Below are positions 23,582 through 33,067 of a DNA stretch of 43,036 nt, in pieces (the first letter of the stretch is position 1; the number at the start of each line of letters is the position of its first letter). Source of the stretch: a virus (lineage: Duplodnaviria; Heunggongvirae; Uroviricota; Caudoviricetes); the IMG/VR virus record IMGVR_UViG_2671180804_000003, positions 1 to 43,036 of that record. One strand, written 5' to 3'. Below the pieces are notes generated by a model that saw only the letters and a list, made by a program, of their open reading frames with translations, did no database searches and was not told the DNA's origin. Made by a program: the position numbers and the translations under genes.

Positions 23582-24634
23582 TTATTCCCCTGTTAACGCC
23601 CTTATTTCCTCCACCGTCTGGCTAAACCTGTCCTCCTCGAGTTCAACGCCGATAGCCTGGCGGCCAAGTTCCAGCGCGATTTTCACGGTCGAACCGGACC
23701 CCATAAAGAAATCAGCCACCACATCACTAGGCTTACTGCTGGCGTTGATGATCTGCCGCAACATGTCAGCGGGTTTTTCGCATGGGTGTTTACCTGGGTA
23801 AAACTGAACGGGTTTATGTGTCCAGACGTCGGTATAAGGAACGGATACGGAAACAGAGAAATGCCGCCGAAGCGATTTGTACTCTTCGAGCAGCTCTGAA
23901 TACTTGCGATTTAACGAATGCCACATAGCCACCAGCTGGTGGTGTGGTGTTGCCAGTTCGCCGTTCTGGTGCTTTTCGATGGCTACCTGCGTGAAAAGGG
24001 ACTGAAGATTCCGGTAGTCTGATTCATTCGGTAATTGCCACTGGCTACCGCTGAACCAGTGAGACACCATGTTCTTCTTTCCAGTCGCATCGGCTATTTG
24101 TTTTGAGGTTATGCCAAGCGCTTCACGTGCATCCCGGAAATAAGAAATTAGGGGAGTCATTACATGCTGCTTCAGCTCGCTTCCCTTCTCCGCGTAACCG
24201 TCGCTCTTTGGTTTATACGGCCCCTGGTAATGCTCAGCGAAGAGGATGCGCTCTGTTGCAGGGAAGTAAGAGCGCAGACTCTCTTTATTACAGCCATTCC
24301 AGCGGCCCGACGGTTTAGCCCAGATGATGTGGTTCAGGACGTTGAACCGCTCACGCATCATGATCTCAATGTCTGCCGCCAGGCGGTGACCGGAGAAAAG
24401 ATAAAGACTGCCAGCAGGTTTAAGCACTCGCCAGAATTGTGCGAGGCACATATCAAGCCAGCGAAGATAATCCTCATCCCCTTTCCACTGATTGTCCCAG
24501 CCGTTGGGTTTCACTTTGAAGTACGGCGGATCCGTGACTATCAGGTCAATGGAGTTATCAGGGAGAGTGGCGATGTATTGCAGGCTATCAGCGTTGACTA
24601 ACTCAACACTGTTTATATTTACAGTATTTTTCAT
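23582..24634 (-). CDS. DNA methyltransferase, beta-class amino-MTase (N6-adenine or N4-cytosine)
   Basis: DPPY motif near N-terminus (LIVTDPPYF) and FxGxG (FFMGSGST) near C-terminus. Confidence 0.85.
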   Translation of the reverse strand: MKNTVNINSVELVNADSLQYIATLPDNSIDLIVTDPPYFKVKPNGWDNQWKGDEDYLRWLDMCLAQFWRVLKPAGSLYLFSGHRLAADIEIMMRERFNVLNHIIWAKPSGRWNGCNKESLRSYFPATERILFAEHYQGPYKPKSDGYAEKGSELKQHVMTPLISYFRDAREALGITSKQIADATGKKNMVSHWFSGSQWQLPNESDYRNLQSLFTQVAIEKHQNGELATPHHQLVAMWHSLNRKYSELLEEYKSLRRHFSVSVSVPYTDVWTHKPVQFYPGKHPCEKPADMLRQIINASSKPSDVVADFFMGSGSTVKIALELGRQAIGVELEEDRFSQTVEEIRALTGE

Positions 24635-24843: not shown

Positions 24844-25248
24844 TCAAGCAGCAGGTTCGGATGGATAAACCTGCTCATACATCTGCTGAAGGGTGTCAAT
24901 AGCTTTGTTAGCCATTATCAATATAGCTTCCGCATCAGCCTTACTTAAAGTTCTATCAAGCTCGTAATCTGCCCATTTACGTCGGGTATGCAAATGTCTC
25001 AGCATTGTTCCCATAGAAATGAGTTTCATTTTTTCAAACGGCTCATTTCCTTTTAACCATGCATCATTTGTAAGATAGTCGCGAACAGCTTGGTGTGACG
25101 ACTTGTTTGGGCATTTCTCAAGCTTATCAAGCGTTTCATGATAAACTCCATAATACGCTCGACCAATGGCGTTTCTGTAACCGATTTCATCGTTGTGAGA
25201 AATGCATTTACCAGCAAAAACAATAAAATCTTTCCCCGATACGCTCAT
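24844..25248 (-). CDS. HEPN-like small protein (putative RNase-type toxin/effector)
   Basis: 134 aa; RAYYGVYH (R-x6-H) in a predicted first helix plus RRKWADYE, resembling HEPN hallmarks; AT-rich; start overlaps upstream stop (ATGA). Confidence 0.5.
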   Translation of the reverse strand: MSVSGKDFIVFAGKCISHNDEIGYRNAIGRAYYGVYHETLDKLEKCPNKSSHQAVRDYLTNDAWLKGNEPFEKMKLISMGTMLRHLHTRRKWADYELDRTLSKADAEAILIMANKAIDTLQQMYEQVYPSEPAA

Positions 25249-26003
25249 CAGTAAATCCCTCTTTTTTCATCGCTTTGAAACCAGGATGTAAAAGGGCTGT
25301 TCCGATAACTATCATCTGAGAGCAAAACCAACAGTTCCATGTTCATTTCAGCTAAAACCTGCGGATCAGCAGTTTGGGCTCTAACGATGAATGCATTGTC
25401 ATCATCTCCACCAAGATAATAGCTAACACTTGAACAGTTAATACCGCGCTTGTTCGCAATCTCTTCAGCTTGATCGCAAAGGGCTTCTAGTTCTCGAGAA
25501 GAAAGACGGGTAGCGTTTTTGAAATCAACAATCTGTTCAGCCATATAATTTCCCTGATTGATTATATCCTCTCGCTCTTGGCCATCATAAAGAGCAGCCA
25601 TTTTGAGGGAGAACTTTTTAACCAACTTGTCGTTGCCGATACAAAATGCAGCGTTTCTTGCTACAAGCCTCAGTTCATGTGAAGGGAAAAGCTCAACTAT
25701 TCTAAACAACTCAACGCGATGCTCATAGTTATGAGCCGAACGAGAAAGATACGCCAAGTAGTTTTGTGCGATCGTTGGACTCCCAGAGCTCATCGCGTCT
25801 TTGAATAAACGTACTGCATCAGAGTGACGCCCGAGAGTTCCATTAAGCCATGCATACGCATGTGCGCGCTCACTTATTGGAAGTTTAGCAATGTCGCGCT
25901 CAATTTCCGCAATAGTGTCTGTATCCGGGACTTCTCCCTTCTGGAAGTAATCGAGGATTGTTGCAAGCAGTTCTTGTTCTTTTGACTCAGGCTGTCCTGA
26001 CAT
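25248..26003 (-). CDS. Hypothetical helical protein, partner of HEPN-like gene
   Basis: About 251 aa from MSGQPESK; no recognisable catalytic motif; translationally coupled to downstream gene. Confidence 0.55.
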   Translation of the reverse strand: MSGQPESKEQELLATILDYFQKGEVPDTDTIAEIERDIAKLPISERAHAYAWLNGTLGRHSDAVRLFKDAMSSGSPTIAQNYLAYLSRSAHNYEHRVELFRIVELFPSHELRLVARNAAFCIGNDKLVKKFSLKMAALYDGQEREDIINQGNYMAEQIVDFKNATRLSSRELEALCDQAEEIANKRGINCSSVSYYLGGDDDNAFIVRAQTADPQVLAEMNMELLVLLSDDSYRNSPFTSWFQSDEKRGIY

Positions 26004-26124
26004 AATTTTCCCGAAGAAAACCAAATTCTGTATGTTTTCAATAGCTTCACTGGATAGGTTTTTATATTGCTGTCATCAGTATTGAAGCTTTTACGGGATT
26101 GTACAGGACCATCAGCGTTCTACT

Positions 26125-28951: not shown

Positions 28952-30889
28952 TCAGGCGGCTGCACCCGCCTTTTGATTTGCACATAATTCAGGAAGATTT
29001 GCTTCTACCAGCGCACGAGCGAACGGCGGCGGTACTGCGTTACCACAGCGCGCTACCTGCTTGTCTTTGGCGTAACGATTGCCGCGATAGTCCTGATCGA
29101 TAACGTAGCCGTCAGGGAAGCCCTGCGCCTTATAAAGCTCATGCGGTTGCAGCATGCGCATTCCGATATCGACGATCTGGTACTTAACCCCCTCGATCGT
29201 CACCAGCCATTCATCCTCGCTATCACCGCAGTAGGTTTCGAGGAATGTCCGGACCTCGCCAACGTGCTGGCCACCAGCGGTAATCGTCGGCATAGGTGTA
29301 TCCATGGTCTGACCGTCGCGGCAGGTTCCGCGCAGCTTCACCAGGTGCGACGCAACTACCGCGTGGTGATCAACAGTAGTGACTGAGTGGGCAGGCTCAT
29401 CCATACCAACACCCGGCCCCGTGTAATTCCCACCATAGTGCTTCGCCAGGAACGCGCTCACCGTTGCAAACTTATTACCACCAGCAGTGACCGTGCCGAG
29501 CGGGTTATTCAGTTGAAGAACACGCGGTTCTTGCCCTGGGCGTTCGCCGTACCCCATCTGGATCAGTGTTGGAGTTACCAGCTGCGACTTACCGCCACCA
29601 CCTGCAGTAATCGTCGCACTCGGTTCGTCAGCCCTGTGCCCAACACTGGCTCCAAACTGGCGGGCGATGACCGGCGCAACCACGCACGCGCGGGACTGCT
29701 TGAGGATTGTATGAGCGGGTTTATCCAGCGGGCGCGGCTTTGCCTGGTACTCACTGCCGCCATTGCCAGCCAGGAACGGTGTCAGGGCGGCCTCAACTAC
29801 GCCAAGCGCATGCCCATTCCCGCCCGGGCGCGCCGACGTACCAGCGGTGACAGTTGGTACCGGCTCGGTCACTGGCTGCCCGGTGGCCCCGGTGCGGAAT
29901 TTAGTAAGATGCGGTACCGCCAGTGCGTAGCCATGCTTTTTAGTGATGGTCTGCAATGGCTCTAACAACGATTGCCCGCGGAAACAGTCATAACCTCCTT
30001 TCGTCGTGGTGTGGTTACACTTCACGATGAAAGGTGATGCGCTTTCGATAACAAAGCGCTGGATGCCGCGCGCGATACGTTTGAGCGTATTTTCCGCCAG
30101 CGGCTTTTTGCGGTCGAAGATGGACCGGGCCGGGATATTCCAGTCAATGCACTCCGCCGCGGTACGCCATGGCGCCAGCTTGCCGCTTTGTACTTCCAGT
30201 GATTTTGGATCCCCATGAGTCGCTTCAGGCCAATGAATCTTGCGGCCGTCACAGCGCATGACCATGAAGAAACGCTTTCTGATCGTCGGCGCGCCGTAGT
30301 CACATGCGCGCAGCTCCCGATAATCAACCTCATAACCAAGCCCGGCGATCAGCTGTTGCGCCTGCTGGCCGTGCGGCTCAATGGCAAGGAATTCACAAAC
30401 CTCAGCCAGCGCAGGGTGATTCGCCGCGATCCCCGTCGACAGCATGCCGACAAATGCCTCGAATGTTTCGCCAGCACGCTCAGGATCTGGGCGTAATTCT
30501 TCATCCAGCAGCGGGCCCCATGTCTTAAACTCTTCGACGTTCTCCAGCATCATGACGCGGGGACGTACTGCCAGCGCCCAGCGCAGGACAATCCACGCCA
30601 GCCCGCGAATCTCTTTCTTAACCGGCTTAGCGCCCTTCGCCTTGGAAAAGTGGCGGCAGTCAGGGCTAAACCAGGCCAGACCGACAGGTTTACCGCTGGT
30701 GGCTGCGCTTGGGTCAACGTCAAACACCGACTCGCAATAATGCAGCGTGTCAGGGTGATTCGTCTTATGCATCGCAATAGCGTTTTCGTCGTGGTTGATA
30801 GCGATATCCACGCTACGCCCGATCGCCAGTTCAATGCCGGTACTCGCGCCGCCGCCACCAGCAAAGTTATCAACGATAATTTCACGCAT
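28952..30889 (-). CDS. DNA (cytosine-5)-methyltransferase
   Basis: Motif I DNFAGGGG, PC motif FSPDCRHFS, ENV motif MLENVEEF; start at MREIIVDNF. Confidence 0.85.
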   Translation of the reverse strand: MREIIVDNFAGGGGASTGIELAIGRSVDIAINHDENAIAMHKTNHPDTLHYCESVFDVDPSAATSGKPVGLAWFSPDCRHFSKAKGAKPVKKEIRGLAWIVLRWALAVRPRVMMLENVEEFKTWGPLLDEELRPDPERAGETFEAFVGMLSTGIAANHPALAEVCEFLAIEPHGQQAQQLIAGLGYEVDYRELRACDYGAPTIRKRFFMVMRCDGRKIHWPEATHGDPKSLEVQSGKLAPWRTAAECIDWNIPARSIFDRKKPLAENTLKRIARGIQRFVIESASPFIVKCNHTTTKGGYDCFRGQSLLEPLQTITKKHGYALAVPHLTKFRTGATGQPVTEPVPTVTAGTSARPGGNGHALGVVEAALTPFLAGNGGSEYQAKPRPLDKPAHTILKQSRACVVAPVIARQFGASVGHRADEPSATITAGGGGKSQLVTPTLIQMGYGERPGQEPRVLQLNNPLGTVTAGGNKFATVSAFLAKHYGGNYTGPGVGMDEPAHSVTTVDHHAVVASHLVKLRGTCRDGQTMDTPMPTITAGGQHVGEVRTFLETYCGDSEDEWLVTIEGVKYQIVDIGMRMLQPHELYKAQGFPDGYVIDQDYRGNRYAKDKQVARCGNAVPPPFARALVEANLPELCANQKAGAAA

Positions 30890-32216
30890 TGACGGCCCCC
30901 TGCATGCTGTTGAAGAGACCACCAGCGGTCGTGATAATTTCACTCGTCGGCATACGTTCGAGCCACAGCTGGTTGATATTGGCTTTCAGCTTGTTCTGCT
31001 GCGAAACAGGTAGAGCGTCAGCCCCTTCAATCTGGTTAAACACCAGTCCAACCTCAAGAGGCCAAACGCGCGATTCGTTTAACGCCTTGTCCTTTGATTC
31101 CTGCGTCTCACGGACATGGGCGCGGATCCCCCGAATATTTGACCATTTGGCTTTATCCAGGCTTTCCATGGTCGCGATGAATTCACTGTGGTTAATGCCG
31201 TATTCTTTCGCAGACTCAACGGCAACCGTGCGTAACCGCTCTGACATGTCTTGTTTCACGTCATCGCTATCAAAGGGCAATGTTTCCAGCCATGCATTAA
31301 CACCCACCAGGATGCTCTCGCTGATCAGCTTTTTCGCTCTGTCGATCGTCAGCGGTGAAACATTGGTAAATTCAGGGTTTTCCAGAGAGTCGGCAGCCCA
31401 GGTATGACCAAACTTTGACTCGCTGAAGGTGTACTCGTCTTTCTTGCCGAACGCCGCGACAACACAGGCCCAAGCCTCTACACCGCTGGTTTCCAGAATG
31501 GCTTTTTGGGTTAATGGCAGTTCTGCCTCTGATTTCTCCGGCACTACCTCAGCGTCCAGCTCCGGCGCCGCATCAGTTTGCGTTCTTCCCACGGCAAATT
31601 GGGCCAGCGACATCGCAGCACGGCCTTTGGCCTCCAGGTCGGTGCGGTTGATGTAACTGAAACGCTCACCCCGCCATGTTTTGTCGAAGACCACGATAGC
31701 GCCAGCAAAAAATGCGCTGGTGGGCTGCTGCTTTTCGTCTTTCGGCACGAACCATGTAGGAAGATCGAAACCAATTCGGCCACGGATGAATGTGACGTGA
31801 TCTGCCTCTACCGGCCACCACGTTTCACTCGTCGCAGACTTAATGAGAAAAACGTACCGACCACCCTTTTCTCGCATGGCCATAGCGTGGTTAATGATGT
31901 GGGTCATTCCGGTAACGGCCTGCTTGTCGTGGTACTGAGAGCGGCTGTAAGGCGGGTTGCCAAACCCGGCACCACCGAGTTCTGCCAGCCGCTCTGACCA
32001 ATCCTGCGTCAGGGCATTATCTTCAGCCGTGTACCATGCTGGGCACTTCGCGTTGCTGTCGTCGGCAAAAAGGTCCAACACCAGAGGGCCGAACATCGCA
32101 TTGATCCCCCAAAACAACAGATCCGGAGTGCGCCATTGATCACCGACCTCTTTCAACTCGTGTGCTGGTTTTGAACGGAGTTCAGCCAGTGCACGGCAGT
32201 ATTTATTTTCCATCAT
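30882..32216 (-). CDS. Phage Dam-type N6-adenine methyltransferase with about 250-aa C-terminal extension of unknown function
   Basis: N-terminal W.TP..LF and GFGNPPYS motif typical of phage Dam family; C-terminal half unassigned. Confidence 0.65.
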   Translation of the reverse strand: MMENKYCRALAELRSKPAHELKEVGDQWRTPDLLFWGINAMFGPLVLDLFADDSNAKCPAWYTAEDNALTQDWSERLAELGGAGFGNPPYSRSQYHDKQAVTGMTHIINHAMAMREKGGRYVFLIKSATSETWWPVEADHVTFIRGRIGFDLPTWFVPKDEKQQPTSAFFAGAIVVFDKTWRGERFSYINRTDLEAKGRAAMSLAQFAVGRTQTDAAPELDAEVVPEKSEAELPLTQKAILETSGVEAWACVVAAFGKKDEYTFSESKFGHTWAADSLENPEFTNVSPLTIDRAKKLISESILVGVNAWLETLPFDSDDVKQDMSERLRTVAVESAKEYGINHSEFIATMESLDKAKWSNIRGIRAHVRETQESKDKALNESRVWPLEVGLVFNQIEGADALPVSQQNKLKANINQLWLERMPTSEIITTAGGLFNSMQGAVNA

Positions 32217-33067
32217 CCTCTGAACCCCTCTGGAATCTTGCTATCAACCGGACCGAACTTCATCGGGTCATGTTTCTTTTCACCCCAGCTGTCACGCGGT
32301 GGCCGCCCCTTCTTGTCCCAGCGGATCCCGCTTTGCAGATAACCTTCAAATTTTTTCGGACCGAAGAGCGTTTCAGGACGCATGTACTGGTACTGCACGT
32401 CATTGCCGTTCCAGTGCTCATGCTTAAGGTCGATCACCAGCTGTAAGTCGCTAACGGTGTAACCTTCACGCAGACGAGCACGGATGTTTTCCAGAGAAGT
32501 TTTTGATTTTTGGTATCGTGAGCCACTAACCAGGTTCAGATGATTCAGAACCAGGATGGCGTTATCGGTGATCATCACTTCAGGGTCTGGTTGCGGCGCA
32601 ACCGGACAAGAAGGTTTTTTAACTGATGGATCAGTAGTTGTATTTACTGACGGATCCCCCCCAGATTCTGACGGGTGAAAACCGCCTTTTTCATCGTTTT
32701 TTGATGCCTCAGATTTTGACGCGTCGGTTTTTGAGGCATCAGATTTTGATGCGTCAGAATCTGACAGGTGAGAAAAGGCAGCAGCCTGCAATTTCGCAAC
32801 ATTGAGCTGGTAAACGTTCGATGCATTTCGGTTGCCTTTACGGCGCTGCTGGCGGGTTAACCAACCATCTTTTTCCAGCTGAGATATGGCTGTACGAACC
32901 GTGCTCTCACCAGCACCAATCTGGCGCGCGATGGTAGCGATGGAAGGCCAGCTAACCCCTTCATCACTGCTGAAGTCTGCCAGACGCGCCATGATGGCAA
33001 CGCTGGATAACTTCATGCCTGACGAAGCGCATGCATCCCATACGTAACCGGTTAATTTAGTGCTCAT
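32213..33067 (-). CDS. Replication initiation protein (N-terminal HTH, O-like organisation)
   Basis: N-terminal HTH (WPSIATIARQIGAGESTVR); central SDASK repeats encoded by tandem DNA repeats; C-terminal conserved phage region. Confidence 0.55.
   Translation of the reverse strand: MSTKLTGYVWDACASSGMKLSSVAIMARLADFSSDEGVSWPSIATIARQIGAGESTVRTAISQLEKDGWLTRQQRRKGNRNASNVYQLNVAKLQAAAFSHLSDSDASKSDASKTDASKSEASKNDEKGGFHPSESGGDPSVNTTTDPSVKKPSCPVAPQPDPEVMITDNAILVLNHLNLVSGSRYQKSKTSLENIRARLREGYTVSDLQLVIDLKHEHWNGNDVQYQYMRPETLFGPKKFEGYLQSGIRWDKKGRPPRDSWGEKKHDPMKFGPVDSKIPEGFRG
32661..32770. repeat. Tandem 15/30-bp repeats inside replication gene (iteron-like, candidate ori)
   Basis: TTGATGCCTCAGATTTTGACGCGTCGG / TTGAGGCATCAGATTTTGATGCGTCAG with flanking partial copies. 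Confidence 0.45.

Follow-up and report, generated by a model that had tools for sequence, protein, structure and literature searches.

Phage N6-adenine methylases of the Dam type, such as those of HP1 and T1, are described by two family profiles, PF05869 and TIGR01712, which are only about 165-170 positions long. The subject of this report is a gene for such an enzyme in a stretch of 43,036 nucleotides (nt) of caudoviricete DNA (IMG/VR record IMGVR_UViG_2671180804_000003, positions 1 to 43,036), which we call the window. Its product of 444 amino acids (aa) matches both profiles within residues 16-213 and has the NPPY motif in common with the family, but it adds 230 residues, arranged in three modules, that lie outside both profiles. 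Annotation usually treats an orphan methylase of a phage as one enzyme; here, about half of a protein annotated as 'phage N-6-adenine-methyltransferase' is modular and uncharacterised. We are dealing with an enzyme of a known kind that carries a new, modular and uncharacterised accessory tail, the most notable aspect of which is the linkage of its last module, named M3, with the C5 cytosine methylase encoded by the next gene.

Several described systems share part of this arrangement. Sb44 of Salmonella phage ST64B (297 aa) and the 'mtase' of Citrobacter phage phiNP (293 aa) have the same Dam head, M3 tail and position after a replication gene resembling O (O-like), and in phiNP a C5 methylase follows, as in the window; however, both lack the insert formed by the other two modules, M1 and M2, and in ST64B the C5 methylase is missing too, RusA being next. 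Free-standing proteins of about 85 aa (phrog_16025) are homologous to residues 381-444, with 45-50% identity, and their genes overlap the same C5 subfamily, but M3 is then a separate gene, not fused to a methylase, and its product begins with a short coiled-coil-like leader. In CPS-53/ST64B-like prophages, ParB-like proteins (P0125, P0129, P0130) have M1-M2 at their C terminus and occupy the slot after the gene for a Phg_2220_C protein, as in the window, whereas their head is ParB/HTH_ParB instead of a methylase and they have neither M3 nor a C5 methylase downstream. A functional analogue is Dmt of bacteriophage P1, an enterobacterial phage product that couples Dam and C5 methylases according to its record annotation; yet in Dmt the two domains are fused directly and their order is reversed, C5 preceding a Dam of a different class, while the window has two overlapping genes. 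Searches of P1 Dmt with hidden Markov models (HMMs) of M3 and of M1-M2, a Rosetta-stone test, gave no match. Lastly, hsdM and hsdS of EcoKI are described (PMC3510504) as adjacent, overlapping and translationally coupled genes whose products cooperate and can be fused in frame, which offers a precedent both for the free and fused states of M3 and for coupled methylase partner genes. HsdS, however, is a specificity subunit of known function and fold, to which M3, with its putative accessory role, is unrelated.

Linkage of M3 with the C5 cytosine methylase

In the window, the end of the M3 coding sequence overlaps the start of the next gene, whose 645-aa product belongs to the enterobacterial C5 methylase subfamily of 575-660 aa and is annotated as DNA cytosine methyltransferase in the chromosome record NZ_CM149564.1. 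The junction is of the ATGCGTGA type in all the loci where M3 is fused to Dam and an ATGA overlap in those with free-standing M3, including the free M3 genes of E. coli and Klebsiella, which precede C5 methylases of 656-660 aa in phages that have different replication modules, with O plus a DnaC/IstB-like loader or with DnaB. Among viral loci seeded with a C5 methylase at no less than 78% identity, the end of an M3 HMM match lies no more than a few nt from the ATG of C5 in 77 of the 77 that were assessable, distributed as 37 with Dam+M3, 28 with Dam+M1-M2+M3 and 12 with M3 in the absence of Dam. When the seed is free-standing M3, in contigs drawn from one genome per species (n = 38 loci), the C5 methylase lies directly downstream in full length in 32 and degraded in 5, with none in 1; when the seed is the M3 of the window, it lies directly downstream in 67 of 80 viral loci. 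Loci with M1-M2 but without M3 (L004, L005), serving as negative controls, have no C5 methylase. Within the assessed loci of Enterobacteriaceae, the linkage is obligate in one direction: the C5 methylase is never found without M3, while M3 can exist without the C5 methylase. It is likely that the methylase cassette depends functionally on M3, and for the physical mechanism of this dependence we infer the following.

The explanation towards which we lean is that M3 serves as an accessory or docking module for a methylation cassette, within a modular tail in which M1-M2 forms a helical spacer and nothing replaces a helicase loader. Ribosomes would pass from the O-like gene via Dam-M1-M2-M3 to the C5 gene, M3 would probably associate either with the C5 enzyme or with a partner that they share, and in this phage the adenine and cytosine methylation of the replicating phage DNA would be delivered together. 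M1-M2, at the position of the dimerisation domain of ParB, would most likely be a helical spacer for protein-protein or self-association, and none of the three modules would substitute for a helicase loader.

The O-like, Dam-tail and C5 genes are chained by overlapping stops and starts (ATGA, at 32213-32216, and then ATGCGTGA), an arrangement that, as read from the sequence, implies translational coupling. M3 could then be a mere leader for such coupling: its 3' end would hold the ribosome-binding site of the C5 gene and overlap that gene's start, while the M3 peptide would be functionless. The stop/start overlap of every locus would suit this role, as would the GGGGG Shine-Dalgarno-like run which, together with the C5 ATG, lies inside the last M3 codons of the window. 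Coupling, however, needs only about 20 nt against the 64 codons of M3, whose W, P, E and L residues are invariant across sequences of about 45% identity, whose ratio of nonsynonymous to synonymous substitution rates (dN/dS) is 0.09-0.125 at dS 0.7-1.6 and whose fold is predicted with confidence. We find a functionless leader very improbable on these grounds.

The heads to which M3 is attached directly upstream of the C5 methylase are diverse: besides PF05869 Dam, they comprise MT-A70 (L190), a small DPPH S-adenosylmethionine methylase (L186, L198, L199, P0149) and a ParB-like protein (L253). This bears upon the proposal that M3, or the whole tail, is an intrinsic accessory of Dam for dimerisation, DNA clamping or modulation of specificity, and that a C5 gene became inserted behind it and has dragged M3 along since. 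Dam+M3 is by far the commonest architecture, to the point of being built into phrog_111 and the PADLOC model PDLC03332, and it is stable without a C5 methylase in Sb44 and in several loci that continue with RusA. Nevertheless, M3 is free-standing in 706 clusters, under purifying selection, and sits on three other unrelated heads, the non-methylase ParB-like one included, always just upstream of C5; assessed C5 loci without M3 amount to 0 of 77; M3 is slightly acidic and matches no Pfam family, DNA-binding ones included; and the PF05869 core takes up only the 165-170 profile positions mentioned above. An accessory intrinsic to Dam is, in our opinion, unlikely.

Some of the evidence does weigh against a role of M3 in the service of the C5 methylase. 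In 13 of the 80 loci seeded with the M3 of the window, M3 is kept without that enzyme, either because the methylase has been cleanly deleted, so that the Ant gene follows, or with RusA in the next position; the Dam+M3 of ST64B Sb44 followed by RusA is of the latter kind, and L112, L114-117, L121, L125 and L129 are similar. Since M3 persists without the C5 methylase in this minority of phages, it may also serve Dam itself. Conversely, M3 is absent beside the distant C5 methylases (34-52% identity) of phages of Vibrio, Aeromonas and Pseudomonas, and therefore it is not a requirement of the C5 family as a whole. The C5-seeded loci contained no natural fusion of M3 with C5, fold searches of PDB and BFVD returned no structural homologue giving a functional hint, and many loci belong to closely related phages, so that the counts given above overstate the number of independent events. 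Nor do correlations of pairwise distances show M3 to be co-inherited with C5 more than with Dam (rho 0.51 vs. 0.50); the near invariance of the C5 N terminus makes this comparison uninformative.

Methylation-dependent (Type IV) restriction systems are common in Enterobacteriaceae, the family to which the distribution of M3 is confined. It is conceivable that M3, perhaps with M1-M2, is an anti-defence passenger that inhibits such systems (McrBC, McrA, Mrr) and travels with methylases of foreign pattern because the modifications that these introduce expose phage DNA to attack. That M3 is tied, whether in cis or in trans, to four methylase families unrelated to one another would fit with this, as would a small, helical and mildly acidic protein that is predicted to fold independently. 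On the other side, M3 has no similarity to known anti-restriction proteins, it is matched by PADLOC only as part of methylase models, the BFVD and PDB fold searches are empty and, with a net charge of only -2, M3 does not qualify as a DNA mimic. We consider an anti-defence passenger quite improbable.

Returning to M3 as a module of the methylation cassette, a wider formulation is possible, if tentative: M3 could typify an unnamed class of methylase accessories, acting either as a docking subunit that unites the upstream protein (here Dam) with C5 or as a shield from methylation-dependent restriction, while M1-M2 would be a second unnamed module common to methylases and ParB-like proteins. A module of 64 residues is apparently indispensable beside a widespread C5 methylase of enterobacterial phages. 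If M3 were a subunit, an adaptor or an anti-restriction partner, the expression and reconstitution of such methylases, as well as their interpretation in methylome and phage-host studies, would change, and one or two new domain families would be added.

The C5 methylase of the window has features of its own. Between its catalytic motifs lie five tandem repeats resembling P-x-x-[ST]-[VI]-T-[AT]-G-G, at residues 343, 423, 463, 499 and 532; they resemble tandem target-recognition domains, and the enzyme may be multispecific like the C5 methylases of Bacillus phages. Moreover, all or part of the C5 methylase has been lost recurrently in near-identical phages (L058, L063, L077, L078, L080, L094), in some cases by precise deletions that join M3 to the Ant gene and in L058 by an internal deletion. 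Such recurrence suggests that C5 is often counter-selected.

Modules of the tail and their other contexts

The features of the region are collected in table 1. The Dam head is an ordinary member of PF05869/TIGR01712 and a predicted N6-adenine (GATC) methylase. The Pfam Dam profile PF05869 covers residues 19-199 (E 8.5e-43; 146.4 bits, cut-off 28.1) and TIGR01712, 'phage N-6-adenine-methyltransferase', covers residues 16-197 (E 1.4e-59; 200.4 bits, cut-off 97.05), while conservation among homologues extends to about residue 213 in the alignment. Its (D/N)PPY motif, conserved in the alignment, is NPPY at residues 87-90, within GNPPYS (86-91).

Table 1. Positions in the window of the Dam-tail gene, its parts and its neighbours
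Feature	Position	Strand	Basis
C5 cytosine DNA methylase, 645 aa, downstream partner of M3	28952..30889	-	Pfam DNA_methylase, E 2e-20
Overlap of 8 nt, ATGCGTGA, Dam-tail stop / C5 start	30882..30889	-	Sequence read directly
Whole gene, 444 aa: Dam head + linker + M1 + M2 + M3	30882..32216	-	Open reading frame listing
M3, about 64 aa, three helices, residues 381-444	30885..31076	-	Alignment, C5 linkage
M2, four long helices, residues 283-380	31077..31370	-	Alignment, model
M1, three helices and a short hairpin, residues 233-282	31371..31520	-	Alignment, model
Linker, acidic, variable, low confidence, residues 214-232	31521..31577	-	Alignment, pLDDT
Phage N6-adenine methylase domain PF05869/TIGR01712, residues 1-213	31578..32216	-	Pfam, TIGR01712, conservation
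O-like replication initiator, HTH_36 + Phg_2220_C, upstream of Dam	32213..33067	-	Pfam, PHROG

A preliminary description of this DNA, made from the sequence alone, had limited the methylase to the first 180 residues or so and taken the remainder (30882-31650, i.e. residues ~190-444) for one C-terminal domain of 250 aa without recognisable motif, possibly a replication or DNA-binding module. It was right in part. The extension is real and is matched by no curated family, and the methylase is indeed N-terminal, although its profiles reach residues 197-199 and its conservation goes beyond; the tail is not a single domain, and the replication role is not supported. Residues 190-444 have no match in Pfam, even at E ≤ 10 and with the DNA-binding families included, nor in NCBIfam, and no PDB sequence matches the tail. 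Searches of PDB with profiles of M1-M2 and of M3 are also empty, and Foldseek comparisons of the tail with PDB and with BFVD give nothing at E ≤ 0.001, no family being assignable. The description would have yielded to a match with a target-recognition or dimerisation domain of methylases; none was found among solved or curated ones.

Instead of one domain, homologues and alignments resolve the tail (approximately 230 residues) into a linker and a chain of exchangeable helical modules, three in number. The linker differs among homologues in length and sequence, has a net charge of -6 and shows a predicted local distance difference test score (pLDDT) below 50 at residues 211-231. M1 has the motif ESKF[GA]HTWAADS and predicted helices at 237-244, 246-256 and 264-276; M2 has a conserved W-x-N-I-R-x-x-R near its end and predicted helices at 288-312, 318-339, 343-351 and 361-382; and the M3 alignment is characterised by W-P-x-E-V ... 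I-N-x-x-W-L-E. An AlphaFold2 model of residues 229-444, computed with an alignment of 24 sequences, is all-helical, with ten helices and a mean pLDDT of 92.4, and the tail also has pLDDT values of about 90 in the full-length model. As a whole the tail is acidic (isoelectric point, pI, 4.7; net charge -14). No internal homology emerges when M3 is compared with M1-M2, or M1-M2 with the O-like protein (hhalign probabilities of about 0.4%). Pairwise dN/dS over related loci is 0.064 for M1, 0.094 for M2 and 0.088 for M3, with 0.061 for the Dam domain; the tail is under strong purifying selection and is not read-through junk.

M3 matches phrog_16025 and the tails of phrog_111 and of PADLOC PDLC03332. 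The tail modules are thus silently included in automatically built family models, with no curated family, name or assigned function; literature searches, the coverage of which is incomplete and does not prove absence, gave no description of M1-M2 or M3. Two misleading transferred annotations can be corrected: 'phosphoadenosine phosphosulfate reductase' for the gene of the window and 'DNA methyltransferase' for the 85-aa M3 proteins, which are otherwise called 'hypothetical protein'. The former name is given to ST64B Sb44 (L296, sb42-sb45) and to the homologue of the window gene in phage Eeyore.

The modules occur in several combinations, which together constitute a clean example of in-frame mosaicism at the domain level in lambdoid phages. 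Dam+M3 proteins of 295-299 aa form hundreds of clusters in Enterobacter, Citrobacter, Escherichia and Salmonella; Dam+M1-M2+M3 is the architecture of the window protein; Dam+M1-M2 without M3 is represented by P0016; M1-M2 follows a ParB-like head, HTH_ParB by Pfam, in P0123, P0125, P0129 and P0130; and M3 as a free-standing protein has 81-134 aa, mostly about 85, with dN/dS 0.125. The comparison of split and fused versions that the preliminary description called for finds M3 either free or on several heads, and the sole apparent split of M2+M3 from the rest, P0017 (166 aa), had to be rejected, as it is an ordinary Dam-tail gene interrupted by a gap in the scaffold. Some database proteins (P0009, P0014) are chimeras of the Dam tail and C5. 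An exhaustive HMMER search found only 47 representatives of the whole tail among 1.84 billion, and therefore M1-M2 is rare; a profile search for its deeper homologues in an index of 5.8 billion proteins gave only 7 matches.

M1-M2 is also optional, for in L094, L109, L111, L113 and L120 an O-like gene 98-100% identical to that of the window is followed by Dam+M3 without it. The M1-M2 of the ParB-like proteins P0125, P0129 and P0130 aligns with 35-43% identity and follows HTH_ParB at the usual place of the C-terminal dimerisation domain of ParB, a correspondence of position only. This position and the acidic, all-helical nature of M1-M2 are the sole basis for suggesting that it has a role in self-association or protein interaction. 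The related ParB-like protein, of about 265-280 aa, lies at the genomic slot of the Dam gene; among 80 loci (L215-L294) its head is free-standing in 57, has M1-M2 in 19 and M3 in 1. The last, L253, is the sole one of the 80 in which a C5 methylase follows. In L005, ParB+M1-M2 takes the exact slot of the window's Dam gene, after a Phg_2220_C replication gene and a PerC-like gene, with RusA, Ant, DUF968 and Q downstream. A screen for partner genes, based on families of open reading frames (ORFs) within 4 kb on either side of M1-M2 loci, found enrichment only of antisense shadow ORFs of M1-M2 itself.

Replication neighbourhood

The suggestion that the extension could be a replication, helicase-loading or DNA-binding module, making up for a missing P or DnaC-like gene, started from the absence of a helicase-loader gene next to the O-like gene, and none is indeed annotated nearby. 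The O-like protein itself, however, has a DnaD-like Phg_2220_C domain and matches PHROG families named 'DnaD-like helicase loader'. No P-loop ATPase or other profile match indicative of helicase loaders such as lambda P or the AAA+ proteins DnaC/IstB is found in residues 190-444 (Pfam at E ≤ 10, NCBIfam), and the tail shows no similarity to ATPase or lambda P profiles and no clear one to DnaD/DnaB_2-like helical replication domains (DDBH2, Phg_2220_C), besides being acidic. Nor does the tail co-occur obligatorily with a cognate initiator: M1-M2 is dispensable beside the nearly identical O-like genes mentioned above, and M3 tracks the C5 methylase across replication modules of both the O/DnaC and the DnaB type. 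We conclude that a replication role of the extension is extremely unlikely. A low-complexity near-repeat, SDSDASKSDASKTDASKSEASK, joins HTH_36 and Phg_2220_C at residues ~100-125 of the O-like protein.

Source prophage and its other genes

The window is a temperate prophage of E. coli. A stretch of the NZ_CM149564.1 chromosome is 100% identical to it, and phages Eeyore and Flotzy have 97.7% identity to it. The 444-aa gene is 100% identical to that of WP_077778783.1 on the same chromosome, bears there the plain annotation 'phage N-6-adenine-methyltransferase' and is carried by 15 of 5426 complete E. coli genomes. The phage belongs to the CPS-53/ST64B-like group. In CPS-53 of E. coli K-12 (L214, NC_000913.3 2472112-2473246), yfdO-yfdN-yfdM is a decayed counterpart of the module of the window, consisting of an O-like remnant, a PerC-like gene and an N-terminal fragment of PF05869 Dam truncated just past NPPY; yfdM had been considered as a remnant of M3, but this was rejected because it is that Dam fragment.

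A further DNA methylase of 350 aa (N6_N4_Mtase, PF01555, E 4e-42) is encoded on the minus strand at 23582-24634, with the lysis genes on one side and the region of the Q antiterminator on the other, and therefore the prophage encodes three DNA methylases. Between Q and this third methylase, at 24844-26024 on the same strand, lie two adjacent ORFs of 134 and 258 aa that have no Pfam match. The annotation of NZ_CM149564.1, a record nearly identical in other respects, shows neither of them, and the pair could represent an inserted accessory (moron) or defence segment.

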